Under the pieces are notes generated by a model. It saw only the letters and a program-made list of their open reading frames with translations, was not told where the DNA came from and made no database searches. A stretch of 64,000 nt of DNA, taken from IMG/VR virus record IMGVR_UViG_3300032287_003869, positions 1 to 64,000 of that record, one strand, 5' to 3'. The stretch is from a virus. The position numbers and the translations under genes are program-made. Numbering within the stretch: the stretch's first letter is position 1; every line of letters begins with the position of its first letter. This document shows, in pieces, positions 127-56,879 of this stretch.

Positions 127-335
127 TTAAGTTTAAGTAAGTTTGGAATAGATTCGATTTCTTTTATTAATTCTTCTTCATTAAATACACCTTTAAACAT
201 TTCAGAATCAATATACAACTTTCCTTCAAATACTGTTTCATTACTATCAGTATCTATAGTAATAAGTTTAAACACTTTTTGTGTACCCATATCTACTACT
301 CTTTTTATTTCAGTTTTCATATTTCTTTCTCTCAA
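123..335 (-). CDS. hypothetical protein
   Basis: ORF in a tightly packed minus-strand array; true start may be 320. Confidence 0.55.
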   Translation of the reverse strand: MRERNMKTEIKRVVDMGTQKVFKLITIDTDSNETVFEGKLYIDSEMFKGVFNEEELIKEIESIPNLLKLK

Positions 336-10450: not shown

Positions 10451-10467
10451 TTTTTTTTTACTCCTTG

Positions 10468-10707
10468 TTAAAACCCATCTTGAGTTGGAAGTTCATGTGG
10501 ATGGAAAAAACCATTATCGTCTTCTGGTGTTAATTCTAAATGCGAATTCTCAGGAAGAACGTATCCTGTTGCCTGTAAAAATCTTTCAAAGGCATACAGA
10601 AGATCGCTAATAGTGGCTTCGCTATCAATCTCCATACTGACTGAAGGGTAAATGTCTCTATTAAACCCCTCATGATCAACTATTTTAAATATGTGCTCCT
10701 GTTTCAC
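10468..10707 (-). CDS. small conserved phage protein
   Basis: L..FERFLQATGY pattern. Confidence 0.6.
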   Translation of the reverse strand: MKQEHIFKIVDHEGFNRDIYPSVSMEIDSEATISDLLYAFERFLQATGYVLPENSHLELTPEDDNGFFHPHELPTQDGF

Positions 10708-10991
10708 TTGTTTTCCATCCTTTCAATATATTGCTCTAAAAGTTCAGTTATAACTTCATTAACGGAAATATCTTTTTCAGCTGAAATGGAAATAAGCATC
10801 TCCAAAACCTCTCTTTTGAATTCTGAAATATCAATATCAATTTTTACAAAAGGAGTCATTAAAATTGAATTGTCATCGTGAACCTTAATACTGAATTTTT
10901 CATTTTCCTTGATTCCAAGATTCTCACACTCTTCATCTGAGAATTGGATGTAATAGTCTTTCTTTTCCTGTACTTTTTTAACAATGCTCAT
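10704..10991 (-). CDS. AbrB/MazE-like domain protein (putative regulator)
   Basis: From ATG 10991: YYIQFSDEECENLGIKENEKFSI resembles a swapped-hairpin domain, followed by a helical ISVNEVI..LL segment. Confidence 0.45.
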   Translation of the reverse strand: MSIVKKVQEKKDYYIQFSDEECENLGIKENEKFSIKVHDDNSILMTPFVKIDIDISEFKREVLEMLISISAEKDISVNEVITELLEQYIERMENK

Positions 10992-11026
10992 AATCAAAAT
11001 ATACTCTACCAGATATTGGGTTTTAG

Positions 11027-12719: not shown

Positions 12720-12974
12720 TTATTTTTTTCTTTTCTTATCGGAAACAAGTCTCTTTAAATTACAACCGCAATGCTCGTAATAGGGACAATCATCACAATA
12801 TCTATCATTGTCCAAGAAAATATCCGGACGAATACATGCATCCCTTGTTACATTGGACACCCCCTCTTTATTCAAAAGAATGTTATTCTTGGCATCATTT
12901 CTTTGAACTTGGGGAGTTTGATAGTTTTCCACAAATTCATTGAGTTCTTTTAATTTTCTATATTTCTTTTTCAC
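12720..12974 (-). CDS. hypothetical Cys-rich protein
   Basis: C...CDDCPYYEHCGC possible Zn site. Confidence 0.6.
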   Translation of the reverse strand: MKKKYRKLKELNEFVENYQTPQVQRNDAKNNILLNKEGVSNVTRDACIRPDIFLDNDRYCDDCPYYEHCGCNLKRLVSDKKRKK

Positions 12975-12977
12975 TTT

Positions 12978-13394
12978 TTAAAAATTGCAAAATTCTCCGT
13001 TATTTAGACTGTAATATAATTTCTTGTAACCAACTTGCCTTAAAAGATGAGAACATCCGTTGCAAGGTTTAGCATACCTGACATTTCCCATTTTGTCAAG
13101 ACGTATATTGATAAACGATATATCGCTCATGTCGTTTTCTCCATATTTGTTTTGGAGTTTCAATATACAATTGAATTCGGAATGCATTCTTGCTATATTC
13201 CTCAAATCCTCACCCTCTTCTGATACATAATCAAACTTTGGTATGTTTGGATGTGTTTTTATACTATTGATTCCAATAGCTACTGTTTTTTTCTTATGCA
13301 ATGCAAATGTTACATGGAATGTCCTATTCAAATCATAATTATGATGAATTGGCTGCAATGCCTTTGATATTTCTATAAATTTTTTAAATTTCAA
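12978..13394 (-). CDS. cytidine/deoxycytidylate deaminase-fold protein
   Basis: HSE...KPCNGC zinc motif. Confidence 0.75.
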   Translation of the reverse strand: MKFKKFIEISKALQPIHHNYDLNRTFHVTFALHKKKTVAIGINSIKTHPNIPKFDYVSEEGEDLRNIARMHSEFNCILKLQNKYGENDMSDISFINIRLDKMGNVRYAKPCNGCSHLLRQVGYKKLYYSLNNGEFCNF

Positions 13395-13804
13395 AGTTTA
13401 ACACACTCGATTTTATAAAAATCAAATATCTCCTTGGTATGAATCGCATCTATATTATCATATTCCTCCAGATATACAACTCTTGGAATATTCCAAGCAC
13501 ATATTAATTTAGCACAACTAGCGCAAGGTAAAAGCGTTACAGCTATCAATCCGCATTCATTTCTATTGAACAAGGACATGAGATTGGCTTCCGCATGTAT
13601 CATGAATGGTCTTCTTTTGTCTCTATCTTTCCAAAAAAGAGAATCTACATTTTTACCTTCTTTTAATCCATTATATGCCACGCCCAATACTCTATTATCG
13701 TTGGATAATGCACACGCACCCACCTTTCTGAATGGGTCTTCAGATCTAAGGCTTGATGTTTTTGCCAATTCCAAGGCATATTGTTCCCAATTTAAACGAG
13801 GCAT
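13391..13804 (-). CDS. cd: dCMP deaminase
   Basis: RSEDP..KVGA, YNG, HAEAN and PCASC; start set at ATG 13804. Confidence 0.85.
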   Translation of the reverse strand: MPRLNWEQYALELAKTSSLRSEDPFRKVGACALSNDNRVLGVAYNGLKEGKNVDSLFWKDRDKRRPFMIHAEANLMSLFNRNECGLIAVTLLPCASCAKLICAWNIPRVVYLEEYDNIDAIHTKEIFDFYKIECVKL

Positions 13805-17071: not shown

Positions 17072-18877
17072 ATGCCAGAAAACGCATCTTCAGGAAGAGA
17101 ATCCACATTCGGTAGGGGATTGATGAATTATGTCAACTCCTATCTTCCATATCAGTCTTATACTGTTATAGATACAATATCAAAATTAAATCCAAAATTC
17201 AAGACATTCCAAGACACTGGTTCAAAAAGAACAGAAGCACTTTCCAGACAAAGTATCAGTTCTTCTTCTGATTATAATGATATTTCTCCTTCCGCATTCT
17301 TTAACATTGATTCGAATTTTTCGCAATACATGTATGCGAATGTTCAGGCTGATAAAATTTCTAGAATCAGAGACTATCGTGTTATGGCAGCATTTTCTGA
17401 AGTTGCGGATGCCTTGGATGAAATATGTGACGAGGGTATAAACAAAGACGATAATGGTGATATTGTAAAGTTGGAATTTCCCACAGAAAAACTTAAAACT
17501 GAAGTCAAAGGAGATATTAATGAGGAGTTTGAAAAGATAGTCAATTATTTCGAATTCGAAAAAAGAGGTTGGGAATATTTTAGAAACGTTCTGGTTGACG
17601 GTGAAGTTTATTGGGAAAATATCATCCACAAGGAAAGAGAAGAAGAGGGGGTTCTAGGTATTGTAAGTGTTCCGACAGAGCTTATTGATCCTATTTTTGG
17701 AAATGTTCAAAACATGCTAGTCAAGGGCTTTTTGCTTAGAAAGCCTGTTTTTGACAAAACAAATCCATCTAAAATTGTAGATTATGTTATGATTCCTTTG
17801 GATAAAAACCAAGTAACATATGTTAACTCTGGTGTTTGGAACGAAAATAAAACAATAAGAATTCCTTTCATTGAAAATGCAAGAAGAGCATATAGACAGC
17901 TTTCTCTCATTGAAGATAGCGTTGTCATTCATAGACTTGCACGTGCTCCATCAAGACTTGTTTTCAACGTTGATGTTGGTACAATGCCAGCACCAAAGGC
18001 TGAATCCTATCTCCGAAAGATGATTCAAGACTATTGGTCGAAAAGAACCTTTGACGTAGATCAAAATGGACAAGTCAATAAGTTCAATCCTCAAAGTTAT
18101 TTAGATAATTATTGGTTTGCCAAGAGACAGGGTTCTGAGGGGACTACTGTAACGGATGTTCAAGGAAGTGCTCAACTCAATAGTCTTCCAGACTTGGACT
18201 ACTTTGTAATGAAACTTTACAAAGCATTAAAGGTTCCTGTAAACAGAATTTCAGCGGAATCCGGTTATAATGATGGAATGCAGATGTTAAGAGAGGAGCT
18301 TAAATTTGCTAAATTCATAATGAGAATGCAAATGCATTTCGCGGAATCATTGAAAAATACATTCATTGTTCACTTGAGATTAAAAGGTCTTTGGGACAAA
18401 TATGATTTAAAAGAAACCGATTTTGAAATCAAATTCACTCCTCCTACTAATTTCTTTGAAATGAGAGAGGCTCAAAAAGCTCAAATAAAATACACAACAT
18501 TTAACGACATGGTTCAAAACGAATCCATATCCAAGACCTATGCTCAAAAGAAATATTTGAGATGGAACGATCAAGAAATACTCGCAAATAGAGCATTCCT
18601 CAAGAAAGACAAGGAGCTAGAGTTTGAACTTGCTCAGATTCAAGCCAATGGACCTATGTGGAAGACTGGAGGAGAGTCCGTTGAGGGTCAATCATTGGCG
18701 GCTGGAGGTGGTGGAGGTGCGCTTCCAACCGGAGAAGGCGCTCCAATAACAAACGCTCCTCCTGCTGGTGAGGGTGAAGCCCCTCCAGCTTTTGGACCTG
18801 CTCCAGCGGCGGGTGGTGGAGGTGGTGAAGCTCCTGCTCCTGCTCCTGCTCCTGCAACTCCTCCAGCTGGTGAATAA
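17072..18877 (+). CDS. gp20: portal protein, T4 gp20-like
   Basis: YRVMA..SEV.DA.DEI, QL.LIEDS.VIHRLARAP.R.VF.VDVG.MP..KAE.YL, KLYKALKVP..R and REELKF.KFI motifs. Confidence 0.95.
   Translation: MPENASSGRESTFGRGLMNYVNSYLPYQSYTVIDTISKLNPKFKTFQDTGSKRTEALSRQSISSSSDYNDISPSAFFNIDSNFSQYMYANVQADKISRIRDYRVMAAFSEVADALDEICDEGINKDDNGDIVKLEFPTEKLKTEVKGDINEEFEKIVNYFEFEKRGWEYFRNVLVDGEVYWENIIHKEREEEGVLGIVSVPTELIDPIFGNVQNMLVKGFLLRKPVFDKTNPSKIVDYVMIPLDKNQVTYVNSGVWNENKTIRIPFIENARRAYRQLSLIEDSVVIHRLARAPSRLVFNVDVGTMPAPKAESYLRKMIQDYWSKRTFDVDQNGQVNKFNPQSYLDNYWFAKRQGSEGTTVTDVQGSAQLNSLPDLDYFVMKLYKALKVPVNRISAESGYNDGMQMLREELKFAKFIMRMQMHFAESLKNTFIVHLRLKGLWDKYDLKETDFEIKFTPPTNFFEMREAQKAQIKYTTFNDMVQNESISKTYAQKKYLRWNDQEILANRAFLKKDKELEFELAQIQANGPMWKTGGESVEGQSLAAGGGGGALPTGEGAPITNAPPAGEGEAPPAFGPAPAAGGGGGEAPAPAPAPATPPAGE
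18690..18874 (+). repeat. low-complexity Gly/Ala/Pro/Glu tail of the portal
   Basis: GGT/GGA runs and tandem GCTCCT encoding GGGGG and APAPAPAP. Confidence 0.7.
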
Positions 18878-18894: not shown

Positions 18895-19272
18895 ATGGGA
18901 CTATTTGAAAAAACGTTCTCTATTTTATTAGAACAGACTTGGAACGCTGGATATATGAACATGTTCATGCCTATGCAAAAGAAAAAGAAAGGCATGAGGC
19001 ACATGAGACCTATAATTTTAGATCCTTTTAAGAGAAAACATGCTCAAACTGTTCCAGACATGCACAGACCTGATATGACTCTGATTCAACAAGTGGAAAG
19101 GCTTAAAAACAACCCAACCGTAAATGTTCCTCTTAATATCGTGCAACTTAGAAAAATTTGTAAGAAATACGGAATAAGTAGTGTGTCCAAAATGGAACCA
19201 AAAAAATTGGGAAATACCGGAATAATGATTGTTTGGAATGAACCCACAAAAACCTTCATATTGAAAAAATGA
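18895..19272 (+). CDS. late protein with capsid-targeting-like leader
   Basis: MGLFEKTFSILLEQ; TAAATA at 18884-18889. Confidence 0.65.
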   Translation: MGLFEKTFSILLEQTWNAGYMNMFMPMQKKKKGMRHMRPIILDPFKRKHAQTVPDMHRPDMTLIQQVERLKNNPTVNVPLNIVQLRKICKKYGISSVSKMEPKKLGNTGIMIVWNEPTKTFILKK

Positions 19273-20021
19273 TCACTTTTGACAAATATAATGGTGTAAA
19301 TTGCATCAGAACATATCCAGATAATTACAATGAATATGTTCAATCTACCGTGAGGTTCACGGATAAAGAGAAAAATATCGCAGAAAGATCCTTATATAGT
19401 AATTATTGGAGAGAACAAATAGATCTTTACGGTCAGAAAATATTATATTACAGAAACTTGTATAATGTTCAAGATGGCGATAACACTTATGGTGAAATGC
19501 CTTTGAGCCAATTTGAAGCTCCAAGAGAAATGATAATGTTGTTCACTTTGACTGAAAATGCATTGGTTCTTTCAAAGTTCGGATATCGTTCAGACGATCA
19601 AGTAACGGCTTACTTGCATATTAGTTCGTTTTATGTGCATTACCCCCCAAATATCGAACCAAAATCGGGAGACTTGTTCAAGTTGGTTGAATATGGCTCC
19701 GATAGACCCGGTGAGCGTGATGGTAAGATGTACGAAATCACAGAACGTTGTGATGAGGATAATTCAGCCATCAATCCCTTGGCGGGTCATTACGTTTGGC
19801 TTTTGAAGGCCAAACGCTTTGAGAACTCGTTTGAAAATGCTCCACAAGAAAGAGGAAACATGCAAGTACATGATGATACCTTTTATGGTGATCTTAGCGG
19901 ATCTCTAACAGTTCCTCCAGAAAGAGACCCATCTTATCCTCAAGATTCAGATACCGAATCCAAAGAAAAAGTATTTGATATGTCTATCAATGATACTCTG
20001 GAGTATGGTGGATACTATTAG
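19269..20021 (+). CDS. gp14: neck/head-closure protein, T4 gp14-like
   Basis: REQIDLYGQKILY, YGE...SQF, LSKFG.RSDD, EPKSGDL and YEIT motifs. Confidence 0.8.
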   Translation: MITFDKYNGVNCIRTYPDNYNEYVQSTVRFTDKEKNIAERSLYSNYWREQIDLYGQKILYYRNLYNVQDGDNTYGEMPLSQFEAPREMIMLFTLTENALVLSKFGYRSDDQVTAYLHISSFYVHYPPNIEPKSGDLFKLVEYGSDRPGERDGKMYEITERCDEDNSAINPLAGHYVWLLKAKRFENSFENAPQERGNMQVHDDTFYGDLSGSLTVPPERDPSYPQDSDTESKEKVFDMSINDTLEYGGYY

Positions 20022-46595: not shown

Positions 46596-46832
46596 ATGAA
46601 TTTCGATAAATTAGTAAAATGTATTTTAGAGGACAATGCCGCTGGTGATGGAGGCTCATTTGGGTCTGGTGAATCATTCGGACATGGTGGTGCTGTCGGT
46701 AATTCTGACTTTTGGAATACCGGAAGTGCAATTATCCCCTATGTAATGGGGACATTTAGAAGATCGGGGAAAGTAAAAGGGAAAAGAAAAAGAAAAAATG
46801 CAAAAAGAAGAAAGAAAAATAGATCTAAGTGA
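46596..46832 (+). CDS. small late protein with capsid-targeting-like leader, Gly-rich with basic tail
   Basis: MNFDKLVKCILED; C-terminal KGKRKRKNAKRRKK. Confidence 0.65.
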   Translation: MNFDKLVKCILEDNAAGDGGSFGSGESFGHGGAVGNSDFWNTGSAIIPYVMGTFRRSGKVKGKRKRKNAKRRKKNRSK

Positions 46833-47250
46833 TACTGGTCACTGGATTCTTCCTCCAAGTGTGGAAGAATTTGGAGATAATTCCAAAGATTACTTCGGTT
46901 TTGTATATAAAATAACTCTGCCCAATGGTTTCTGGTATATTGGGTCCAAGCAATTCGAATCTAAGAGAAAATTAAAGCCTTTGAAGGGTAAAACAAGAGC
47001 AAGAAGGACGGTTGTGGAGAGTGATTGGAGAGAATACACGTCATCCTCAAACATGATAAACGACATTATATCCAAAGAGGGGAAAGGAAATATGAGGTTT
47101 GAAATCATAACTCTTGCAAGGGGTGGGAAGTTTGAATTAAAATATTGTGAAATGAAACATCAAGTTTTGGAAAATTGTCTTTTTGAAGAGAATTGCATGA
47201 ACCAAATAGTGAACGTAAGGCTTGGGAAGAAAAAAACTTTCAATTTTTAA
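46798..47250 (+). CDS. GIY-YIG nuclease-like protein
   Basis: GFVYKIT...YIGSK...ESDW.EY.SSS. Confidence 0.75.
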   Translation: MQKEERKIDLSDTGHWILPPSVEEFGDNSKDYFGFVYKITLPNGFWYIGSKQFESKRKLKPLKGKTRARRTVVESDWREYTSSSNMINDIISKEGKGNMRFEIITLARGGKFELKYCEMKHQVLENCLFEENCMNQIVNVRLGKKKTFNF

Positions 47251-47271
47251 AAATATTTTCACTTTACCCTA

Positions 47272-47300
47272 TTGACTTTTTGGGGTAGTTGGGTTAAAAT
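47272..47300 (+). promoter_or_regulatory. sigma70-type promoter
   Basis: TTGACT-17nt-TAAAAT. Confidence 0.7.
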
Positions 47301-47470
47301 CATTCTGTGGATGTTTCAAAACCCTTTACACACAACAAAACATCTGAATATAAGAAAACTAGAAATGCATTTTTTGTAGAAAAAACAAATTTTTCAATTG
47401 TATTTTTAAATTTCTGTTTTAAAATGAATCTGTGAATGATTTGAAAAGGAATTAGATTTTTAAACATAAA

Positions 47471-47941
47471 ATGCTCTACGAATTGATTAATTATAACACT
47501 TTATACAAGAATATCAAACTAGATATAGAAGAATTCTGTAAGAAATATGAAATTTCATTTGAAAATTCCAAAGTAAAAACAAAAAGAGAACTTTTAATTT
47601 ATTTTTCTCTTATTGAGATTTTAAAAAAATTGGAAAAAAGAAAATTAGAAAAACCAATTGTAATCTTCGATTCAAACTTCAATAATACTTTGTTTCAATT
47701 CTGTTTTAAACAAATATCAAAAATTCTAGTTATTCCTGTATTTTTTGTTGAAAATGAAATTTCAAATGGAACAAAGAAAGAATTGATATTAAAAGCTGAT
47801 TCTTTTTATGATTTAAATATTTTTACAATTAAAAAACTAAAAAAACAATTATGTTTTAAAAAACATAGTTCTCTTGTTTCAAATATTTGTAATTTTAAAT
47901 CTTTGGGATGCTCTCAAATGATGGAGCATAGCGTTGAATGA
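47471..47941 (+). CDS. hypothetical protein
   Basis: 156-aa, very AT-rich ORF. Confidence 0.55.
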   Translation: MLYELINYNTLYKNIKLDIEEFCKKYEISFENSKVKTKRELLIYFSLIEILKKLEKRKLEKPIVIFDSNFNNTLFQFCFKQISKILVIPVFFVENEISNGTKKELILKADSFYDLNIFTIKKLKKQLCFKKHSSLVSNICNFKSLGCSQMMEHSVE

Positions 47942-48260
47942 TTGGGAGAAATTGTCTTAATGCCTCTTTTGCATTGTTTTCATTGATATCTCCGAATTCA
48001 ACAATTTTATTCTCTTCATCAGCATCTAGTCTTTCGATCATAAGAGCCTTTGCAATCATTCTTACAAGAAGAACCATTCCTTCAGGGGAAAGTGCTTCGG
48101 TATTAGAAGGTTGTTCCGGAATTTCAGGAACTGGTGTTGGTGCTGCCTGATCTGGTGCAGCCTGTGCAGGAGCTTCTGGTGTTGGAGGAACAGGGGGTTG
48201 ATCTTGTTCAGTAATAAGTTCCTTGTATCCTTTGTTGAGTATTTTGTGAAATCTGCTCAT
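47895..48260 (-). CDS. late protein with capsid-targeting-like leader and Pro-rich linker
   Basis: MSRFHKILNKGYKELITEQ; 1 nt downstream of the late gene 48262-48912. Confidence 0.65.
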   Translation of the reverse strand: MSRFHKILNKGYKELITEQDQPPVPPTPEAPAQAAPDQAAPTPVPEIPEQPSNTEALSPEGMVLLVRMIAKALMIERLDADEENKIVEFGDINENNAKEALRQFLPIIQRYAPSFESIPKI

Positions 48261-48261
48261 A

Positions 48262-48912
48262 TTATTTGCTTTCCTTTAAAATTTCCAAATTGAAAATAAT
48301 TCTCTTCAATACTTCTTCATTTACTTCTTTTCCTTCACCATTCAACATGCTTGTAATTTTGGAAATCAAAACCATATCATTTGAGAAGTCATCCATTGGC
48401 TTTGATACATTTTTTTCATAGGATTCAAACTCTATGACATTCTTAACAGCACAAAGATAATCAGCTGCTTTCACAATCTTGGAAAGCATCCATGCTTCGA
48501 TTTTATTTCCACATCCAACAAGAGACATGAGAGCATCTGCATATTTTTTGATTTTGAATACTTCAGATTTTGCCATATCAAGATTTCCAGAATCATGCAC
48601 ATCGTAATCGCATTCCTCACACCCCTCTTCTTCCTCTTGAGAATGTTGACCACACTCTCCACTTTCGCATTCTGGGCAACTCTGTCTATTCATGTCAATA
48701 GTATTGGCCGTTTGTTCCATTTCCTCTGGACTCCTTCTGAATGTTTCAATTTCTTCTGGTTTTGTTGCAATAAATTCTATTTCATTTTGGTCGGGATTTG
48801 TTGCATTTTTAATCAATACGTTTTGGGGCATTTGTTCGCCTCCAACATTCATTTCTTCCAAAACTTGTTCATATGCTTTGGAAAGTTCTAAAAGACTGGA
48901 TTTTCTTGTCAT
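48262..48912 (-). CDS. late protein with capsid-targeting-like leader (possible prohead core-like)
   Basis: MTRKSSLLELSKAYEQVLEE; MAKSE...IEAWM.SKI.KAADYL pattern; TAAATA 5 nt upstream. Confidence 0.7.
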   Translation of the reverse strand: MTRKSSLLELSKAYEQVLEEMNVGGEQMPQNVLIKNATNPDQNEIEFIATKPEEIETFRRSPEEMEQTANTIDMNRQSCPECESGECGQHSQEEEEGCEECDYDVHDSGNLDMAKSEVFKIKKYADALMSLVGCGNKIEAWMLSKIVKAADYLCAVKNVIEFESYEKNVSKPMDDFSNDMVLISKITSMLNGEGKEVNEEVLKRIIFNLEILKESK

Positions 48913-48917
48913 AAGAT

Positions 48918-48941
48918 TATTTAGTTGTCGAATGATAAATA
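48918..48941. promoter_or_regulatory. back-to-back late promoters
   Basis: TATTTA 48918-48923 (minus) and TAAATA 48936-48941 (plus). Confidence 0.65.
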
Positions 48942-48949
48942 AATTTGTT

Positions 48950-49228
48950 ATGAGTAATTTTGATCAACTTGTTAATGTCATTTTGGAAGCTGCTAGATGC
49001 ACAGGTCCAACAAAGAAGGCATCTTCAACAGCTAAAGGTAAAAAATGGATGCAATGTGTAAAAAATCCAAAAGGAAAAGGTTACAAAAGAGTTCATTTTG
49101 GACAAAAGGGTGTGAAAGTTACAGGAAAATCAGGCAACACTAAGAGAAAAAAAAGCTTCCGCGCACGGCATGGATGCTCCAAAGCAAAACCAGGAACCGC
49201 AAAATTTCTAAGTTGTAAGAATTGGTAA
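48950..49228 (+). CDS. small basic protein with capsid-targeting-like leader (DUF5754/DUF6321-like)
   Basis: Start reset to ATG 48950: MSNFDQLVNVILEA; VHFGQKG...RKKSFRARHGC...SCKNW. Confidence 0.7.
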   Translation: MSNFDQLVNVILEAARCTGPTKKASSTAKGKKWMQCVKNPKGKGYKRVHFGQKGVKVTGKSGNTKRKKSFRARHGCSKAKPGTAKFLSCKNW

Positions 49229-49255
49229 ACGTTTTATTTGTAATAATTTACATAA

Positions 49256-49666
49256 ATGAAATTCAACGACCTCTACAACTATCTATTGGAAACAGCACTT
49301 GGTCTTGTTGAAGACATCACAATAGAGGGAATTGGAACTCTAAAGGCAAAAACAGACACAGGAAATTCAGCACACAATGTTCTCCATGGTTTGATCAAAG
49401 GAAAACAAGAAGGAAGCGTTACATTTGAAACAATAGATGGTAAAGTTGTAACATTCCCATACAATGAAGAAATAAAAATTCACATTGGTTCAGGTAACAA
49501 AGAAGACAGACCAGTTGTTAATTTCAATGTGGAAATTAATGGAGAAAGATATGAGAATGTCCCATTCTCAATAGCAGATAGAAGCGAGAACGAATACAAG
49601 GCACTTCTTGGGGAAGAATTCATAAAAGCCAATGGTGGAATTGTTGATGCAACAAAAGAGGATTAA
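49256..49666 (+). CDS. retropepsin-like aspartic protease (RimK-associated type) with capsid-targeting-like leader
   Basis: AKTDTGN catalytic motif, EDRPVV and FSIADRS...LLG; MKFNDLYNYLLET. Confidence 0.75.
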   Translation: MKFNDLYNYLLETALGLVEDITIEGIGTLKAKTDTGNSAHNVLHGLIKGKQEGSVTFETIDGKVVTFPYNEEIKIHIGSGNKEDRPVVNFNVEINGERYENVPFSIADRSENEYKALLGEEFIKANGGIVDATKED

Positions 49667-49674
49667 ATATTTTA

Positions 49675-50442
49675 ATGCGTGACAATGATAGTTTGATTTT
49701 GGAAAAATTATATTCTACTATTTTGGAAAATAGTGGTTTAGATGCAAAATATGCCGAATTGGAACAAAGATCAAAAGATGGAGATGAAGAAGCTGAAGCG
49801 GAAGCGCAGAAAATGGTGGATGAGGCTGCGAAAAAATCTGAATATAATATTGCTGATGTTTTCCACGGAAGTCCGACTCACGGGTTTACTGTGTTTACTC
49901 CACAAACAGACATAACGGGTTCTATTAGAAATCAAGGGGTGCATGTGTTTTCAAAAGGAACCAAAATACCTCGTAGATATTCGGGCAGCAAAGGAGAAAT
50001 TCGCAAGTTTTTTTTGAATGTTAATAATCCTTTTGATCATAGGAATCACGATCAAGTTAGGTATGTTTTGCGTCACATTTTTTTTAATCGCAACAATTAT
50101 CTTGATATGGAAACTCCAAATGGAGTGGTTCCAGACCTTTATAAACTTTTGGAAGATAAATCTAAAGACTACGAAACAGTAAACAAAAATGACACATCGG
50201 CTGAAAAACTTTTTAAGCTTGCATCAGCACCAGATTATGAGTTCGTAGAAACATCTGGAGTTCCACAAGTTCTTAAAGAATTGGGATATGATGGTTATAT
50301 AACAATGGAGGGTGGGGAATTGGTTTATGGGGTTTTTGATTCTTTTCAAATCAAATCCGCCACCCCCTTCACCTATGATAATGGAGAATTGATTCCCCTT
50401 TCCCAAAGATTCGATTCTTCAAACAATGATATAAGATATTGA
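49675..50442 (+). CDS. ADP-ribosyltransferase-like (ART-PolyVal type) protein with capsid-targeting-like leader
   Basis: FHGS...F.VF, G.HVFS, FLN..NP, LKELGYDG, VFDS.QIKSA and F...NDIRY; leader MRDNDSLILEKLYSTILE; TAAATA 5 nt upstream. Confidence 0.7.
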   Translation: MRDNDSLILEKLYSTILENSGLDAKYAELEQRSKDGDEEAEAEAQKMVDEAAKKSEYNIADVFHGSPTHGFTVFTPQTDITGSIRNQGVHVFSKGTKIPRRYSGSKGEIRKFFLNVNNPFDHRNHDQVRYVLRHIFFNRNNYLDMETPNGVVPDLYKLLEDKSKDYETVNKNDTSAEKLFKLASAPDYEFVETSGVPQVLKELGYDGYITMEGGELVYGVFDSFQIKSATPFTYDNGELIPLSQRFDSSNNDIRY

Positions 50443-50474
50443 TTATTTTATATTCCAAATGAATAAATAATTAG

Positions 50475-50948
50475 GTGAAATTTCTAAACCTATTGGAAAA
50501 TGCAGTCAAATCCATAAAACTTCAAAAGGTCCGCATCAAGGTTGATCCTATGTGGAGTGAGAAGCTGGGTATTATTAATTCACCATATTATGAAGGATAC
50601 ATACTACAGGAGTGTCCGGGCAGCAAAATGGACTTCAAAGTTTTCATTGTCAACACTCCATCAGGAATTAACCCTATACAAACTGTGCATAAAGCTCATT
50701 TGGAGCCTGTTGAGGTCGAGACTCCACAAGAAACTGAAAAAGTTTCAAAATTCAATGGCTCAAGACTATCGGTCTTTAAGAAACACCTTGTTGAGAAACT
50801 CAAGGAATTAGGTAAAGAATTAGAATCTCCAGAAGTTTCCCAAGTTATTGCATCCACAGATATCGGTTTTATTGAAACCTATTTGAAACAAATGGGACTA
50901 AATGAAGAAGATCTTTTAAATTTGTATAGAAAATGCTTACAAAAATAA
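50475..50948 (+). CDS. late protein with capsid-targeting-like leader
   Basis: MKFLNLLEN; TAAATA 5 nt before the GTG. Confidence 0.65.
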   Translation: MKFLNLLENAVKSIKLQKVRIKVDPMWSEKLGIINSPYYEGYILQECPGSKMDFKVFIVNTPSGINPIQTVHKAHLEPVEVETPQETEKVSKFNGSRLSVFKKHLVEKLKELGKELESPEVSQVIASTDIGFIETYLKQMGLNEEDLLNLYRKCLQK

Positions 50949-50964
50949 CTAAATATATAAAATT

Positions 50965-51507
50965 ATGCCACTAAAAAAAGGAAAATCAAAAGAAACCATC
51001 TCTAAAAACATTAAAGGAGAGATGAAGAAATACAAGAAAACCGGAAAAATTGGAACTTCCAAGCCCAAGTCCAAGAAGAAAGCTCAGAAACAATCTGTTG
51101 CAATCGCATTGAGCAAGGCACGTGAATCCGGTGCAAAGATTCCAAAAAAGTCAAAAAAATCAGTTGTAAAGGAATCTTTTGACAAATATATCAATCTTTT
51201 GGTTAAAGAATCTTTTGGTTTAAGTGAAATGGACGGCCCCTTGGTTAATAGCTCATTTGATGATAAATCAAACGATCATAATGACCCAGACGAGAGCGAA
51301 TTTCCTTCAAAGTTGAAAGAACTCCCAAAAGGTGAATATTTCAAAAGAAAACCTGATTCTAAAAAAATATGGATCAAGGGCGATCATGTAAGATTCCGCA
51401 AAAATGGAAAAATCATTATTCGTTATTCTTGTTCAGCAGCGGACGACATGAATCAAGAGATTTTTCTAAATCCTCTTACTCCAGTTTATACAGAGTTTGA
51501 ATATTAA
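50965..51507 (+). CDS. late protein with Lys-rich N-terminal domain (DUF6496-like)
   Basis: MPLKKGKS...KQSVAIALSKAR; internal ESFDKYINLLVKESFGLSE; TAAATA upstream. Confidence 0.65.
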   Translation: MPLKKGKSKETISKNIKGEMKKYKKTGKIGTSKPKSKKKAQKQSVAIALSKARESGAKIPKKSKKSVVKESFDKYINLLVKESFGLSEMDGPLVNSSFDDKSNDHNDPDESEFPSKLKELPKGEYFKRKPDSKKIWIKGDHVRFRKNGKIIIRYSCSAADDMNQEIFLNPLTPVYTEFEY

Positions 51508-51510
51508 TAT

Positions 51511-51538
51511 TTGACTTTTTCTTTTTAGATTCTAAATT
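51511..51538 (+). promoter_or_regulatory. sigma70-type promoter (leaderless)
   Basis: TTGACT-16nt-TAAATT, 6 nt before ATG 51545. Confidence 0.55.
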
Positions 51539-51544
51539 CTTTAC

Positions 51545-51820
51545 ATGCCAGTAAAAAAGGATTTTAGAAAAGAATTAGAAAAACTCATATCCAAATACGA
51601 TGATTCCGTATTGGCTAAACATATTGATCATTGCTTGAAAGAATACGATCATACTGAATATATGAAGGGCGCAGAGAATCCATTTGGGGTAGATTTAAAC
51701 AAGGTTCCTGAAGTTAAACCAAACACACCTCAACCGCCTCAAGCCATTCCAGCGAATATTGGAAATATCACAACGCAAGGTTGGTCTAATCCGTTTGCAG
51801 GAACAAGCTGGGGAGTTTAA
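51545..51820 (+). CDS. hypothetical protein
   Basis: 91-aa ORF with its own promoter. Confidence 0.6.
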   Translation: MPVKKDFRKELEKLISKYDDSVLAKHIDHCLKEYDHTEYMKGAENPFGVDLNKVPEVKPNTPQPPQAIPANIGNITTQGWSNPFAGTSWGV

Positions 51821-52506
51821 CCTTCCCCTCTAGCTCCCCTAGCGAATCCTCTCTCCCATTCGGATACATTATGCGCCCAATTGGGATCTTTTGTTCTGTT
51901 GGAGTCACTTTTTCCAGAGCTAGAAACTCTACTCTTATCACCGCTGAAGAAACCTGCAATTTTATTTGGTATAGTTTCAGTTGCTGGTTTTTGAGCAGTA
52001 ACGTCTTTACGATATATTGATGGGTCTCTTGGACGTGGAGCAGATACCGGAGCTTGTACTGGCTTTTCAAATTTCATCGGACCCAATTTATTAAAGTCCA
52101 ATGGACCACTATCTCCGAAAAAATCCGCCTCAGATGACGGTTGCTCCTCATCTTCAGGCAATCTTTCGGGGTTTTCTTTTTGTTGCTTCTCCCTCTCTCT
52201 TGCTAGTTCCTTTCCGAACTTAGGATCAGGCTCATTTGCGGTTTCTTGATCATCCTGTGCAGGAGTAGCCTCTGGATAAGAAGCATAACCAGCTGTATCG
52301 GCATCTCCTACTCTGTGTAAAATGTTATATGCCCTCTCAACCATTGGATTTCCAAAAAGTTCTAAAATTTCGGATTTTAATCTTTGATCAAAATTAGCTG
52401 CTCTGACTTTATCGATAAAAGATTGAAAACTTTTAGTTTCAGCTTGCTCCAAAAGGATTGATTTGTATTGATTGAAAATATCGTGGTTGTCTTTTTTACC
52501 TAACAT
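51817..52506 (-). CDS. late, largely disordered protein with capsid-targeting-like leader
   Basis: Start reset to ATG 52506: MLGKKDNHDIFNQYKSILLEQ; TAAATA at 52515-52520 (minus). Confidence 0.7.
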   Translation of the reverse strand: MLGKKDNHDIFNQYKSILLEQAETKSFQSFIDKVRAANFDQRLKSEILELFGNPMVERAYNILHRVGDADTAGYASYPEATPAQDDQETANEPDPKFGKELAREREKQQKENPERLPEDEEQPSSEADFFGDSGPLDFNKLGPMKFEKPVQAPVSAPRPRDPSIYRKDVTAQKPATETIPNKIAGFFSGDKSRVSSSGKSDSNRTKDPNWAHNVSEWERGFARGARGEG

Positions 52507-52514
52507 ATTAATTA

Positions 52515-52540
52515 TATTTAGCATTTTATCCAACTAAATA
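52515..52540. promoter_or_regulatory. back-to-back late promoters
   Basis: TATTTA 52515-52520 (minus) and TAAATA 52535-52540 (plus). Confidence 0.65.
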
Positions 52541-52548
52541 ATCATACA

Positions 52549-53271
52549 ATGACCAGATTTGATAAATTTTGTAATTTAATTCTAGAGGTATATGGTAAAA
52601 GAATAACATCAGCTACAGGAACCGACAACAGTGGAAAAACGGAAGTTACTTATAGCGATGGATCTTCTGCTGTATTGACCGGACCCAGACCAGTGAGAAA
52701 CAACAATCCCGGTAACATTGAGTATGGGCCATTTGCCAAAGCAAATGGAGCAGTAGGAGGTGATGGGAGATATGCGGTTTTTCCAGATGTTGAGACTGGG
52801 ACAAAGGCTCAAATAAATTTATTAAAAACATCCACTTATCAAAATTTAACATTAAAAGATGCAATTACAAGATATGCTCCACCAAATGAAGGCAACAATG
52901 CATCATATCCTAATAAACTCAGCAATATGACTGGAATTTCATTGGACACCAAACTTAGCAATCTATCGCCAAGTCAATTTTCTAACATGGTAGATAAAAT
53001 GCAAGCAATTGAAGGGTTTAAATCGGGAAACGTCGATTCCACCCCATCCCAACAATATGCTGGAACTGGAGCAACACAACAACCACCAGAAGGAGGGGAA
53101 AAGGACAAAGAGCAATCACCATATGCCGCAATGTTTGCTCAATATTTGCCTTCCGTAGCAGGAGGATTTACTAAAGAAAAGGGAGCAGAATCCCTTAAAG
53201 GAATAATGAACACAGCAGTCGGAGCAATAGAGGGAATGACAGGGAAAAAACTACCAATACCAAAGGTTTAA
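52549..53271 (+). CDS. virion lysozyme-fold (RNNNPGNI-type) muralytic protein with capsid-targeting-like leader
   Basis: RNNNPGNI...GRYAVF.....G...I.RYAPP.E.N...Y; leader MTRFDKFCNLILEV. Confidence 0.7.
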   Translation: MTRFDKFCNLILEVYGKRITSATGTDNSGKTEVTYSDGSSAVLTGPRPVRNNNPGNIEYGPFAKANGAVGGDGRYAVFPDVETGTKAQINLLKTSTYQNLTLKDAITRYAPPNEGNNASYPNKLSNMTGISLDTKLSNLSPSQFSNMVDKMQAIEGFKSGNVDSTPSQQYAGTGATQQPPEGGEKDKEQSPYAAMFAQYLPSVAGGFTKEKGAESLKGIMNTAVGAIEGMTGKKLPIPKV

Positions 53272-53273
53272 TT

Positions 53274-54032
53274 ATGAACGAAGACGTAAATGCTATTTTT
53301 GAAAAATATGTTCTTGTGTTGGAACAAGAACAACAATCACAGGCTCAAAGTGAAGGCAAGCCATTAGGTCAATTAGTAGGAGCTAAAGGTGGAGGAGAAG
53401 GAGGAGATTGGGGAGGATCTATGCCAAAACTCATATCTCTTTTGCCTTTTGGCGTTTGGAAACCATCATCATTAAAAAGGGCAAGACTAAGCACAAGGTC
53501 CGGTAACATGTCTGATCACTATGAGGGAAATAGTATAGCATATGCTGCGGACTTTGGACTGAATACCACATTCGGAACAAGAGTCGAAGATGCTACAAGA
53601 TTTGCAATCGCCGTTGCTAGAAATGCAGGAGCAAATGTTTCTTCTTGGGAACCATTTAAGGGAAATTATTTTAATCACGAAACCCCAGATGGATATAGAG
53701 TTCAAATTATTTGGCTATCAAATGTGGGGGGAAACCATTATGATCACGTCCACGTTGGAGTTAAAAAAGGAAGAAGCTCGGCTAAATTTAAAGGATCGGC
53801 GGCTCCTGTCTTAAATGCAAAGACAAAGACAGACGCAGAAACCAACCAACAAACAGATCAACAATTTTTTACAAAAGACCCCGAAGGTAAAGAACCATCT
53901 CCTTATTTAAATCAATTAAATCAAATGCTTCAAGGGGGCTTCACAAAAGAAAAAGGAATAGAAGCACTTCAAGGAATAGTTGGAAATGCAATATCCGATA
54001 TAGGAAAGGCTGTTGGAAAAAAACTTTTCTAA
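53274..54032 (+). CDS. LAS/M15-like zinc peptidase with capsid-targeting-like leader
   Basis: SDH...YAADF...HYDHVHV zinc-ligand pattern; leader MNEDVNAIFEKYVLVLEQ. Confidence 0.7.
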   Translation: MNEDVNAIFEKYVLVLEQEQQSQAQSEGKPLGQLVGAKGGGEGGDWGGSMPKLISLLPFGVWKPSSLKRARLSTRSGNMSDHYEGNSIAYAADFGLNTTFGTRVEDATRFAIAVARNAGANVSSWEPFKGNYFNHETPDGYRVQIIWLSNVGGNHYDHVHVGVKKGRSSAKFKGSAAPVLNAKTKTDAETNQQTDQQFFTKDPEGKEPSPYLNQLNQMLQGGFTKEKGIEALQGIVGNAISDIGKAVGKKLF

Positions 54033-54048
54033 AACAATAAATAATACC

Positions 54049-54918
54049 ATGAGAGATAAAGATGCACAGTTGATTTTCGAAAGTTATTTAAATTCCAAAA
54101 ATAACATAATTTTAGAAGACGATGGTAAAAAATGGGAGGATGAAAGCTCTGTATGGTTTTGGTTGAAAACATTTGATCCAACGGGATTTAGTTCTTGGCC
54201 TGATGTTAGGGAGGCTTACTATGGAGTTAGAGAAAATCCAGCAGACGTTGGCCCTTGGGCATTTTTTATATTGCAGATGTTTTTAGCTTTACCTAATTTT
54301 GGATTATTGGCAGCAGGAATTGGGGGAATAGGATGGGCTGGATTGAGGACTGTGGCCAAAGCTGCGATTAAAGCTGGTCCATCTAGTCCAGCGGTTTATA
54401 AAATTGCTGAAACAATATTAAAATATGCTACTGAGACTAAATGGTTTCAGGCAATATTGGTTAAATTTGGAAAAATTCTTAAAGAAAAAGGAGTCATGAA
54501 TCAAAATATGCTCGATATTTACGAAAATATGATTACGTCTGGAAATTTTGCTAAATTAGGTTCAAAAGGAGGAGCTTTGGCTATAGCTGCAAAAGAAACA
54601 ATTGGTGACGGGATTAGGTATGTTCCAAAAATACCATTGGTAGGAATTCCAATATTTGGAAAAGGCGGTCAAATTGCTCAATATGGTGGAAGGGCGGGAA
54701 TGTCCCAAGCGGATGAGGTTAAAGCTGAATTTGAAAAATTTAAACAAAATATAAATAAAGGTTCTAATAAAGGACAAGGACCAACTAAAGAAGCCGCCAA
54801 AGAAGGAAAATATCCAGTTGGAAAAAGAGTTAAACCTGATCAACAGACTCCTGATAAAAAAACAGAACCTGCTCCAGCTAAAAGCAAATCTAAATATGCA
54901 CTTGAAAACTTAGACTAA
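54049..54918 (+). CDS. membrane-inserting protein with capsid-targeting-like leader
   Basis: Start reset to ATG 54049: MRDKDAQLIFESY...IILED; DPTG motif and hydrophobic Gly-zipper helices (LLAAGIGGIGWAG); TAAATA 5 nt upstream. Confidence 0.65.
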   Translation: MRDKDAQLIFESYLNSKNNIILEDDGKKWEDESSVWFWLKTFDPTGFSSWPDVREAYYGVRENPADVGPWAFFILQMFLALPNFGLLAAGIGGIGWAGLRTVAKAAIKAGPSSPAVYKIAETILKYATETKWFQAILVKFGKILKEKGVMNQNMLDIYENMITSGNFAKLGSKGGALAIAAKETIGDGIRYVPKIPLVGIPIFGKGGQIAQYGGRAGMSQADEVKAEFEKFKQNINKGSNKGQGPTKEAAKEGKYPVGKRVKPDQQTPDKKTEPAPAKSKSKYALENLD

Positions 54919-54921
54919 TAT

Positions 54922-55917
54922 ATGAACAAATATAATACCTTGAAATATATCATGGAGCAAACGTCTTCCGATTTAGAAAAAAATGTTAATAGATTAAAAA
55001 AATTAATAGCTATTTACAATTCAGATTCTGAAGAAAACAAGGATTTGTTGTCAACGGATCCTAATTCTGAAGATAGTTTGAAATTTTGGAATTCGGTAGA
55101 AACGCTTTTAAAAAATATTGAAAATGCTGATGCATATTCTCCCGAATCTTCAAAATATTTACAAGAACAGGGAGAAGATGTGGCAAAAGCAATGTCTGAT
55201 ATAAAAGAAATCGTTAAACAACATCCTGAAATATATAATGCCAATTTTAAAGAAATATTAGACCCAATATCAAGCGAGCCTTTATCGACAAAACCAACAG
55301 AGCAACAAACCGCGCCTTCAAATGCTCCATCTAGTGAACAAAAACCAGAATCCACCGCAACCGGAACTTCTGAAAAGAAACCGGAAGATACATACACTAA
55401 AGATTACACAGGAGTATCTATTGTGGATTTCTTAGATCAAAGTGGAAAACCAAGTGATTTTGAATCGCGTAAAAAATTAGCTCAAAGTCTTGGAATTCAA
55501 AATTACACAGGAACCGCATCTCAAAATACTCAAATGCTCAATACATTAAGAGGCGGTAAACAATATTCCGATGGAGTTGAAGTTCAAAAAGCAGAACTCG
55601 CCAAACCATATACTACACCCAAAGATGGAAAAGGTCCAACAATTAGATATGGTCAAATGGAATATCCCGCATATATTGACATGGGTGGAGGAAAATATCG
55701 CCTTGCAAAACAAGAAGAATTGGATAACCCGAATATGCAACTTTATATTCCAAATCCCAAAAAGGGACAACAGGAATATGGAAAGCCAAATTTTGTTAAA
55801 GTTAGAAGAGAAGGTAGCGATATTAGACGCCAATCTCAATTCGGTGGAGCAATTGGATCTGCTTCCAATTTATTCGGAGACATTGGAAACACTCTTGCAA
55901 AACCATTCAGAAAATAA
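54922..55917 (+). CDS. protein with DUF3597-like (putative cell-wall-binding) domain and capsid-targeting-like leader
   Basis: SIVDFL...SDFESRKKLA..LGI.NYTGTASQN..ML; leader MNKYNTLKYIMEQ. Confidence 0.65.
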   Translation: MNKYNTLKYIMEQTSSDLEKNVNRLKKLIAIYNSDSEENKDLLSTDPNSEDSLKFWNSVETLLKNIENADAYSPESSKYLQEQGEDVAKAMSDIKEIVKQHPEIYNANFKEILDPISSEPLSTKPTEQQTAPSNAPSSEQKPESTATGTSEKKPEDTYTKDYTGVSIVDFLDQSGKPSDFESRKKLAQSLGIQNYTGTASQNTQMLNTLRGGKQYSDGVEVQKAELAKPYTTPKDGKGPTIRYGQMEYPAYIDMGGGKYRLAKQEELDNPNMQLYIPNPKKGQQEYGKPNFVKVRREGSDIRRQSQFGGAIGSASNLFGDIGNTLAKPFRK

Positions 55918-55945
55918 TTGATTTTTTGGAAAATTGAAGTAAGAT
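55918..55945 (+). promoter_or_regulatory. sigma70-type promoter (leaderless)
   Basis: TTGATT-16nt-TAAGAT, 6 nt before ATG 55952. Confidence 0.55.
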
Positions 55946-55951
55946 AATTGC

Positions 55952-56662
55952 ATGAGAATAGCAATTTCTGGATGTGCCGCTTCTGGTAAAACCACAACAA
56001 TTCAACATTTTCTTCAAAAATGGCCAAGTTATTCATTGATCAATAGTGAATATAGAAAGTTAATTAAAGATAATAACCACTCCAAAAACACTACTTCAAA
56101 GCTCCAAGGTGAAATATTAGATATACTAGTCAAAGAGTGTGAACCATATACTCTCCACCAGAATGTGATATTTGATAGATGTCCAATAGATAACCTCGTT
56201 TATAGTATGTGGTGCTATGGAAATAACGTGGAAGGATTCACTGACAAATTTATAGAGCAATCAATTTTAAAAGTCAGAAAAGCAATGCAATATTTTGATG
56301 TTATCTTTGTTTGCACTAGAGATTTAATGCCTCCAATTGAAGATAACGGAGTTAGGGAAATTGATCCTAAGTATGTGGAAGAGACTGATAATCTTTTTAA
56401 AGCCATCATTAACAAATATAAAAAAGGAGCAGAAGAATTGCCATTTTTTGAAAAAAATAATGCACCAGCCATTATCGACATATATGGTCAACCACATGAG
56501 AGGCTTGCACAGATTGCAATGTATGTCACCGAGGATGGTAATATGTATGGTGAAGATCAATCACTTATAAACTTGGATGAATTAGGAGAAATGAACAAAC
56601 TCGTTAGAGAACAACAAGACGCATTAAAAAATGAAAAAACTCCAATCTTTGGCATTAAATAA
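55952..56662 (+). CDS. P-loop nucleotide kinase-like protein (AAA_28/dNMP kinase-like)
   Basis: ISGCAASGKTT, FDRCPIDNLVY and DNGVR. Confidence 0.75.
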   Translation: MRIAISGCAASGKTTTIQHFLQKWPSYSLINSEYRKLIKDNNHSKNTTSKLQGEILDILVKECEPYTLHQNVIFDRCPIDNLVYSMWCYGNNVEGFTDKFIEQSILKVRKAMQYFDVIFVCTRDLMPPIEDNGVREIDPKYVEETDNLFKAIINKYKKGAEELPFFEKNNAPAIIDIYGQPHERLAQIAMYVTEDGNMYGEDQSLINLDELGEMNKLVREQQDALKNEKTPIFGIK

Positions 56663-56666
56663 TTGA

Positions 56667-56879
56667 GTGAAGTTTCATAAACAGGCTAACGCTCTCTTAG
56701 AGGGATATAACTCTATTTTAACTAAATCTAGGATGTTTTATCCTAGAAATTTCAATCTTTCCAAAGAATTTCTTAATTCATTCAAGAAAGAGGTTGCTAG
56801 GTTGAAAGCCGAGAATGTTGGAGAAAAAGACATTGTGAGAAAAATCACAAAAGCACTTCATTTCCACGTTAAAGATTAA
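56667..56879 (+). CDS. small late protein with capsid-targeting-like leader
   Basis: MKFHKQANALLEG; TAAATA 5 nt before the GTG. Confidence 0.6.
   Translation: MKFHKQANALLEGYNSILTKSRMFYPRNFNLSKEFLNSFKKEVARLKAENVGEKDIVRKITKALHFHVKD

Follow-up and report, generated by a model that had tools for sequence, protein, structure and literature searches.

A leader-tagged operon of a T4-like phage predicted to encode head-packaged proteins that breach the cell envelope

To pass the cell wall, contractile-tailed phages use a lysozyme on the baseplate spike, and short-tailed phages use wall-cutting ejection proteins that are stored in the head. A review of these enzymes lists head-stored lysins for podoviruses only and baseplate lysins for myoviruses (PMC5380687). 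Here we describe an operon of four genes, P1 to P4, in the first 64 kb (the "window") of a 91.8-kb IMG/VR viral contig (record IMGVR_UViG_3300032287_003869; CheckV completeness 44%). Judged from sequence, its products are probably internal proteins that are packaged in the head, trimmed by a protease and used to breach the envelope at entry.

Close to this locus among the described systems are the T4 internal proteins IPI, IPII, IPIII and Alt, which are targeted to the head by a capsid-targeting sequence (CTS) and trimmed by the prohead protease gp21. The T4 CTS is MKTYQEFIAE, with a single cut after the Glu (PMC8442874). Residues 4 and 7 serve targeting and residues 8 and 10 serve processing (PMC9026906), and the CTS has been suggested to let T4-like phages load varied proteins (PMC9026906; also PMC3012670). 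Leaders at the new locus are 12 to 23 residues long, compared with 10 to 19 in T4, and share with the T4 sequence the aromatic positions 4 and 7, the I/L-x-E end and the attachment of many unrelated cargoes. The genes again lie in a variable island, have a late-type motif and include an ADP-ribosyltransferase among the cargoes. In T4, however, the internal proteins are small, basic and anti-restriction, whereas peptidoglycan hydrolases and a membrane protein are found here. A second, longer leader type (D-x3-[IL]-F-x-x-Y ... [ILV]-x-E) also occurs here, and packaging, which is known in T4, is predicted here from the genes of a fragment on which the protease gene was not seen.

The other relevant comparison is gp16 of the T7 family, a protein of ~1300 residues that forms a trans-envelope channel with gp14 and gp15 and has no cleaved leader. 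Its N-terminal muralytic domain is homologous to the P1 catalytic domain and, on the reading proposed here, P1 would, like gp16, reside in the head until infection and then be released for wall cutting. P1 differs in being a free 24-kDa protein of a contractile-tailed phage. No relatives of T7 gp14 or gp15 were seen, and only the gp16 N-terminal domain has a counterpart (P1); P1-P4 therefore do not belong to the T7 ejectosome family and at most work alike. The first-pass annotation, made from the letters alone, had called the locus ejectosome-like, which may describe its mode of action but not family membership. Lysozyme and DD-peptidase domains also occur in the polyvalent proteins of phages and conjugative elements, for which delivery with the phage DNA has been proposed (PMC5512222). 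The invasion-time repertoire is similar (ART-PolyVal, lysozyme-like domains, wall peptidases and, in one relative of the present phage, an HExxH protein), but one giant polypeptide is used there, compared with separate, small, individually leader-tagged proteins here.

Leaders, operon and island

The source virus is classed from its genes as a distant, divergent T4-like phage. Its DNA polymerase has ~32% identity to those of pelagimyophage Mosig and of Sinorhizobium and cyanobacterial T4-like phages, and a T4-type portal gene lies at 17072-18877 (Pfam Portal_T4, E 1.8e-94). The gp23 gene was not found on the 44%-complete contig, and a DNA search with the P1-P4 genes against 50,697 phage records gave zero matches. 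A 116-kb sister contig (G004, 55% complete), which is the closest relative of large size, also has the P1-P4 operon.

All four proteins begin with a short polar/aromatic leader that ends in [ILVM]-x-E (LILE13, VLE17, ILE23 and IME12 in P1 to P4, respectively), and that of P1 has F4 and F7. Because the length, positions 4 and 7 and the I/V-x-E end match closely, the leaders are regarded as T4-type CTSs, for which head targeting is well supported by sequence. Similar starts are present on at least a dozen other ORFs (open reading frames), mostly at 46.6-56.9 kb. The simple pattern [LIVMFYCT][LIVMF][LIVMF]E, ending at residue 8-30, was counted in 16 of 145 ORFs compared with ~7.5 expected (p 0.004).

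Stronger evidence than this count comes from relatives, in which the leaders are conserved. The leader-final Glu is nearly invariant in P3 relatives, down to ~25% identity, and is kept in nearly all full-length P4 orthologues. P2 orthologues have two interchangeable leaders, a 17-residue "type A" (D-x3-IF-x-x-Y...L-x-E) and a 10-residue form; in orthologue P0064, the leader MITFKQFLVE, nearly a copy of the T4 CTS, is followed directly by the conserved mature N-terminus. Gene starts were also reassessed by this means. For P3, the ATG at 54049 fits the conserved leader and the TTG at 54013 does not. A public gene call for P4 (P0152, 321 aa) begins at Met11 and so drops the leader (54922-54954), but Met1 is the likelier start because orthologues keep an upstream MxKYxxLxYxxE.

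Alt of T4 is a head-packaged protein, and its analogue here is a leader-bearing ART-PolyVal ADP-ribosyltransferase (Pfam E 1.1e-13) located 2 kb upstream of the operon. Directly after the portal gene, a 125-aa ORF (18895-19272) starts with the leader MGLFEKTFSILLEQ; we take this position to be that of the small prohead-core genes 67/68 in T4. The following ORF (19269-20021) matches a head-closure PHROG, and the protease gene is not there. On G004, leader-bearing ORFs adjoin a gp22-like scaffold gene and the gp23 gene, and of these ORFs one resembles P3 in having EPTG and a hydrophobic stretch. The G004 gp23 N-terminus (...AEALLEKWKPVL...) is propeptide-like and presumably comparable to that of T4, which implies a maturation protease.

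P1-P4 are four co-oriented plus-strand ORFs with intergenic gaps of 2, 16 and 3 nt (Table 1). Most leader-bearing genes, as well as the portal and tail-fibre-like genes, have the motif NTAAATA(A/T) 12-19 nt upstream of their starts, and NTAAATA just upstream is associated with leader-bearing ORFs (Fisher p 2e-4). T4 late promoters have the sequence TATAAATA, and by its resemblance to this sequence the motif may act as a late promoter. Matches to sigma-70-type promoters in the region were at the chance level (17 seen, 17 expected). Among the four genes, only P1 has the late-type motif near its start codon, and P1-P4 are therefore read as one operon rather than as four separately promoted late genes. 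No N-terminal hydrophobic segment or signal peptide was found in any of the four proteins. The sole hydrophobic stretch in the set is P3 67-103 (KD19 maximum 1.83), and on the same KD19 hydropathy measure every 19-residue window of P1, P2 and P4 stays below 1.2. No tail genes were seen adjoining the operon.

The operon lies in a ~10-kb island (window 46596-56879) with ~13 ORFs that have CTS-like leaders. In kind it recalls the variable internal-protein loci of T-even phages, although it is much bigger. Two relatives, L004 and L012, have the same gene order, P1-P2-P3-P4-AAA_28. In L004, the P1 slot holds a 30%-identical version of P1 that retains the Glu, whereas the L012 protein in this slot is an unrelated cargo that has a leader of similar kind (MRTFKQFVLE) and the same C-terminal tail. 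The idea that this L012 cargo is a 3D/double-psi-barrel transglycosylase domain was checked against Pfam, PHROGs and PDB sequences and gained no support. L004 also encodes an extra leader-bearing protein (12750-13505, MTKFDKFCNRILQE...) between P4 and AAA_28, which is zinc-protease-like in having HEVTH (HExxH) and gave no Pfam or PHROG match. Cargo swapping has been described by T4 workers at internal-protein loci (PMC3012670), and the P1 slot of the relatives likewise shows it. The AAA_28 gene itself (55952-56662, after the operon) encodes a leaderless, thymidylate-kinase-like P-loop protein and has the same place in both relatives.

Most of what the first-pass annotation had said of the layout was borne out: ORF layout, hydropathy and orthologue conservation agree on four co-oriented genes, all with the leader and none with a signal peptide, and the synteny check it had called for gave the conserved order in L004 and L012. 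Its description of four late genes stands in so far as one late-type motif precedes P1, and should be amended in that the genes are not four separately promoted units.

Table 1. Features of the operon, its island and the lysis cassette. Positions are those of the contig, of which the window is the first 64 kb, or residues where indicated.
Feature	Position	Strand	Details
Late-promoter-like motif CTAAATAA	52534-52541	+	8 nt 5' of P1 start
P1 gene	52549-53271	+	240 aa
P1 leader	residues 1-13		MTRFDKFCNLILE
P1 lysozyme-like domain	residues ~44-160		RNNNPGNI 50-57; Y109, Y120, predicted catalytic E155
P1 linker, then amphipathic C-terminal tail	residues ~196-240
P2 gene	53274-54032	+	252 aa
P2 leader	residues 1-17		...YVLVLE
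P2 predicted zinc-peptidase core	residues ~36-165		S80 D81 H82, D93, N154-HYDHVHV-161
P2 disordered linker, then C-terminal tail	residues ~206-252		homologous to P1 tail
P3 gene	54049-54918	+	289 aa from ATG; 301 aa from upstream TTG 54013
P3 leader	residues 1-23		MRDKDAQLIFESY...IILE
P3 DPTG motif	residues 43-46
P3 Gly-rich hydrophobic stretch (37 residues), interrupted by PN	residues 67-103		PNFG 82-85
P3 C-terminal half			Lys-rich
P4 gene	54922-55917	+	331 aa
P4 leader	residues 1-12		MNKYNTLKYIME
P4 helical domain, then low-complexity linker	residues 17-113
P4 three-helix DUF3597-like module	residues 159-210
P4 conserved β-domain	residues 238-303		DMGGG, VRREG
P4 Gly-rich amphipathic tail	residues 304-331		window 55831-55914; distinct from P1/P2 tail
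ART-PolyVal gene (island)	49675-50442
DUF6496 protein gene (island)	50965-51507
Minus-strand gene (island)	51817-52506	-	divergent from P1
Endolysin gene, PF00959	63778-64470	-	230 aa; 27.4 bits (above cut-off); phrog_7 endolysin
Holin-like gene	64661-64954	-	97 aa; phrog_2609 E 1.3e-5; Pfam Phage_holin_6_1 just below cut-off
Other lysis-cassette ORFs	63778-65292	-	61 aa; 113-aa membrane protein with faint peptidoglycan-binding match

Predicted activities of P1 to P4

P1 is predicted to be a lysozyme-like glycosidase of the Enc34-ORF39/PHA02564 family, which has been described as an all-helical relative of the lysozyme α-lobe (PMC8943055). In a comparison with PDB sequences, P1 matched 7q47 (the Enc34 endolysin) with E 6.6e-7 and 9vvp, the N-terminus of the 1295-residue phage protein Gp29, with E 8.3e-8. 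PHROG matches were obtained with phrog_873 (E 2.8e-19), phrog_2276 and phrog_7182, and the families are annotated as head-associated endolysin, tape measure and "tail injection transglycosylase". In ORF39 of Hafnia phage Enc34 (PDB 7q47), Glu131 is catalytic and Trp79 and Tyr95 are important (PMC8943055). P1 shares with ORF39 an α-helical catalytic domain, the RNNNPGNI motif and equivalents of these three residues. After alignment with MAFFT, E155 occupies an invariant column with the Enc34 Glu (E132 counting Met1), Y109 is opposite Trp79 and Y120 is opposite Tyr95. Because the Glu and both aromatic positions are kept, P1 looks catalytically competent and is predicted to be so. Enc34 ORF39 is part of a lysis cassette, and its C-terminal end is a two-helix membrane domain; P1 instead carries a leader at the N-terminus and an amphipathic tail at the other end, and is encoded in an island of leader-bearing genes. 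Using tblastn with a looser threshold, the P1 domain was also found to match the first ~130 residues of gene 16 in more than 300 T7-like phage records, where the product is annotated "internal virion protein with endolysin domain". For Citrobacter phage CR8, this match begins 19 codons into gene 16, and that protein was detected in virions by its annotators using mass spectrometry.

P2 gave no Pfam match and no PDB sequence match, and none of its 117 homologues is named. S80, D81, H82, D93, R142, Q144, H155, H158 and H160 are invariant in 48 homologues. An AlphaFold (AF2) model built from the homologue alignment has a pLDDT (predicted local distance difference test) score above 90 at residues 31-165. 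While a Foldseek search of PDB with this model returned nothing at E <= 0.001, an exhaustive search with VIA-align placed LAS enzymes at the top, including the C-terminal domain of VldE (9flh; Z 7.0, root-mean-square deviation 2.8, 88 aa, 25% identity). Also returned were the Streptomyces Zn DD-peptidase 1lbu (Z 6.3), three Hedgehog-N entries (Z 4.8-5.0) and Ply500 (Z 4.2). LAS entries make up 6 of the top 13 rows, with Z values that are middling and a family that is consistent.

Based on this model, P2 is predicted to be an MT3-type LAS (clan MD) zinc peptidase with VldE as its closest solved relative. At its zinc site VldE has exactly the P2 segment 154-NHYDHVHV-161; a profile of the 48 homologues, compared with PDB sequences, gave only an 11-residue match to VldE at this site (E 3.8). 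The VldE domain is MT3, motif 3 of the tape-measure protein of mycobacteriophage TM4, and is a proven L-Ala–D-iGln endopeptidase (PMC11667670). Its Zn-1 is held by H301, D308 and H375, and the ligands of its HxH region are H370, D372, H373 and H375 (PMC11667670). P2 resembles MT3 of TM4 and of S. pneumoniae VldE/Spr1875 (PDB 9flh) in the LAS fold, the NHYDHVHV motif and, with less certainty, an upstream His...Asp pair. This pair, H82 and D93, is spaced H-x10-D in P2, compared with H-x6-D in VldE, and both P2 residues are invariant. The MT3 motif of TM4 sits in a virion protein, whereas P2 is free-standing with a leader and a tail; note also that the activity and bond choice of P2 are predictions, while those of VldE-MT3 are proven.

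The C-terminal tail of P2 has 53% identity to P1 180-235 (E 2e-7). The shared pattern, ...GGFTKEKG.E.L.GI...A...I.....GKK, is encoded at 53134-53268 and 53889-54029, and a tail of this type also occurs on the unrelated P1-slot cargo of L012. The tail behaves as a second portable tag, as far as these comparisons go. In distant P2 homologues, MT3 lies behind a transglycosylase-like domain or is fused with tail-lysozyme domains. One such phage, G005, encodes a four-part lysin (L009 3479-5275; DltD-like + PG_binding_1 + Phage_lysozyme2 + MT3) with the N-terminus MIRLKYILLE, and L005 encodes MT3 with a C-terminal domain of no known kind (9743-11314; N-terminus MSLLDFNSWISINE). Many ORFs near these two MT3 genes begin with M..LK.LL.E-type leaders, and G005 encodes an S77 protease. 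From the G005 and L005 lysins, head-targeted lysins may be more widespread.

P3 is represented by just 34 cluster representatives among 1.84 billion proteins, and gave no Pfam, PHROG or PDB match and no Atlas match that would explain it. Y13, D43, P44, G46, P82, N83 and G85 are invariant and E23 nearly so in 32 relatives, all of which retain the leader, DPTG and a hydrophobic ALPNFGLLAAGxGGxGWA stretch. A PT-TG pre-toxin domain (PF14449) had appeared as an Atlas lead (rank 16, score 0.83) and gained no support: none of the 32 family members matched it at E <= 1, and a six-frame genome search gave nothing at E <= 10.

Domain limits in P4 were set using the orthologue alignment and an AF2 model. 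The Pfam match to DUF3597 (PF12200) has E 1.1e-4 and 23.2 bits, below the gathering cut-off of 29.8 bits, and precomputed PF12200 matches exist in five P4 relatives; the module is thus best described as a DUF3597 relative at the margin. Three PHROGs annotated as peptidase or endolysin (phrog_2307, 5115 and 5182) match the same three-helix module. VIA wide and Foldseek searches with the P4 model returned generic helical bundles for residues 1-125 only, and an Atlas search with residues 155-331 gave no usable match. Neither P3 nor P4 has a Pfam, PHROG or PDB match to core-protein families. Natural fusions in which P3 is joined to the C-terminal half of P4 occur in P0134 (518 aa) and P0137 (612 aa). 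The former keeps the DUF3597-like module and the β-domain, and the latter has the β-domain behind a different middle module. These single-chain fusions are taken as evidence that P3 and P4 act together; "membrane-inserting" (P3) and "wall-binding" (P4) should be considered putative descriptions.

Regarding individual domains, several first-pass assignments agree with these results, namely an RNNNPGNI-type lysozyme fold in P1 (from the 7q47 and 9vvp matches), a LAS-type Zn peptidase with SDH..D..HxH in P2 (from the invariant residues and the VIA-align LAS matches) and DPTG plus a hydrophobic Gly-zipper region in P3 (DPTG and PNFG being invariant or nearly so in the 32 relatives). The structure search that it had proposed produced the LAS match for P2 with VIA-align and none with Foldseek. 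Its DUF3597-like domain in P4 is upheld by the precomputed matches in orthologues, and falls short in that the score of P4 itself is below the cut-off.

Proposed route and alternatives

We infer a route that covers packaging, cleavage, periplasmic release, the bonds cut by the enzymes and the parts played by P3 and P4. The four proteins would be expressed from one late operon within the ~10-kb island of leader-bearing genes, each made with a short N-terminal T4-type leader that would carry it into the scaffolding core of the prohead. The prohead protease would then cut the leader off after [ILVM]-x-E, and the mature proteins would remain in the head with the DNA. At infection, they would leave by the tail tube no later than the DNA does. 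P1, as a gp16/Enc34-type glycosidase, would cleave glycan strands and P2, as an MT3/LAS zinc peptidase, would probably cleave the L-Ala–D-Glu bond of the stem peptide, so that together they would open the wall around the tube tip. P3, by way of a hydrophobic hairpin, and P4 would cooperate at the envelope. The result would be a podovirus-style wall-breaching kit in a contractile-tailed phage whose spike may lack a lysozyme.

The spike can be examined on the sister contig. On G004, the matches of the 808-aa gp5-like hub are confined to the OB domain and to the initial ~100 positions of the PHROG family "baseplate hub and tail lysozyme", and no lysozyme family was detected in the hub at E <= 0.05. 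A spike without a lysozyme domain would leave an entry function to fill. Note that the contig under study ends just before the expected position of its gp5-like gene, so that the hub point applies to it by synteny only.

Several points weigh against this route. T4 internal proteins are believed to pass with the DNA into the cytoplasm, where wall hydrolases would be useless, and release of P1-P4 into the periplasm is an assumption. Their virion location and cleavage are deduced from sequence. Neither this contig (44% complete) nor G004 (55% complete) gave a match to the S77 (PF03420) prohead protease; PF03420 is present in three more distant MT3-bearing phages (G005, G006 and G007). The simple leader motif is modestly enriched (16 compared with 7.5 expected). 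Among named proteins, those closest to P1 are endolysins, namely Enc34 ORF39 and that of Acinetobacter phage Ab1 (44% identity). P3 has a single hydrophobic stretch, and no relative of known function was detected for it; wall binding by P4 is based on the below-threshold DUF3597 match and on PHROG annotations.

Alternatively, P1-P4 could be unpackaged late accessory lysis proteins, with P1 and P2 as cytoplasmic endolysins, P3 as a holin-like membrane protein and P4 as a helper. This is consistent with the endolysins that are the best named relatives of P1, with the lack of signal peptides (a property of canonical holin-dependent endolysins), with the holin-like combination of a hydrophobic segment and a charged C-terminus in P3, and with the late-type promoter motif before the operon. 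However, the genome already has a separate lysis cassette on the minus strand (63778-65292, equivalent to L095 278-1792), behind a late-type ATATAAATAA, which contains a holin-like gene and a PF00959 endolysin. Because of this cassette, a lysis role for P1-P4 is not needed, and they are unlikely to be the lysis genes of the phage. Moreover, the same leaders are found on unrelated proteins (the ADP-ribosyltransferase and ORFs beside portal and scaffold genes), a conserved [ILVM]-x-E boundary has no known purpose on a holin, and the P1 domain family is also that of gp16 internal virion proteins. We give an accessory lysis role very little credence.

Two other explanations also place the proteins in the virion, and each is considered improbable, if slightly less so. 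Were P1-P4 carried in the tail or baseplate, for example with the tape measure inside the tube, the leader would serve assembly or chaperoning instead of head targeting. Tape-measure and tail proteins do commonly contain MT3 and the P1 domain (phrog_2276, phrog_9228; PMC11667670), a P3-like paralogue on G004 has a faint tape-measure PHROG match (E 0.006), and known myovirus entry lysins are all tail-borne (PMC5380687). Yet the leader matches the T4 head-targeting sequence in length, aromatic positions 4/7 and I/L-x-E end, it is common to the Alt-like enzyme and to ORFs beside the portal and scaffold genes, and the operon has no tail genes next to it. Alternatively, the proteins could be head-packaged and injected for a use other than entry, such as weakening the wall to exclude later phages or priming lysis, with P3 and P4 being unrelated internal proteins. 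T4 internal proteins act in host takeover and counter-defence rather than entry (PMC3012670; PMC9026906), the island holds many unrelated cargoes, and the P1-slot cargo is replaced in L012. Against such a use, three genomes keep two different wall hydrolases side by side together with a membrane protein, the wall is out of reach for cytoplasmic hydrolases that lack export signals, and the spike of the sister phage, in which no lysozyme domain was seen, leaves the entry function vacant. Head packaging for envelope breaching continues to be the reading that we consider probable.

Implications for T4-like phages

No report of CTS-tagged wall hydrolases was found in a limited literature search. 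P1, which belongs to a recently described lysozyme class, and P2, as an MT3 peptidase, are candidates for enzyme studies. A wider proposal, which is put forward tentatively and for which the odds are less than even, is that in a widespread uncultured T4-like lineage with a lysozyme-less spike, wall penetration has moved to a head-packaged, CTS-tagged, ejectosome-style set that leaves by way of the contracted tail ahead of the DNA (a glycosidase, an L-Ala–D-Glu peptidase and membrane-inserting P3/P4). The CTS would then be a general, cargo-swapping route for both envelope-active and cytoplasmic effectors.

If the envelope-breaching role is correct, a T4-like phage would be using the head-stored solution through the T4 head-targeting system. 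Known CTS cargo would widen from anti-restriction and host-takeover proteins to include envelope-breaching enzymes, and some internal proteins would be suggested to leave the tube into the periplasm and not the cytoplasm. The leader together with [ILVM]-x-E would also provide a simple rule by which the injected proteome of uncultured T4-like phages could be predicted.

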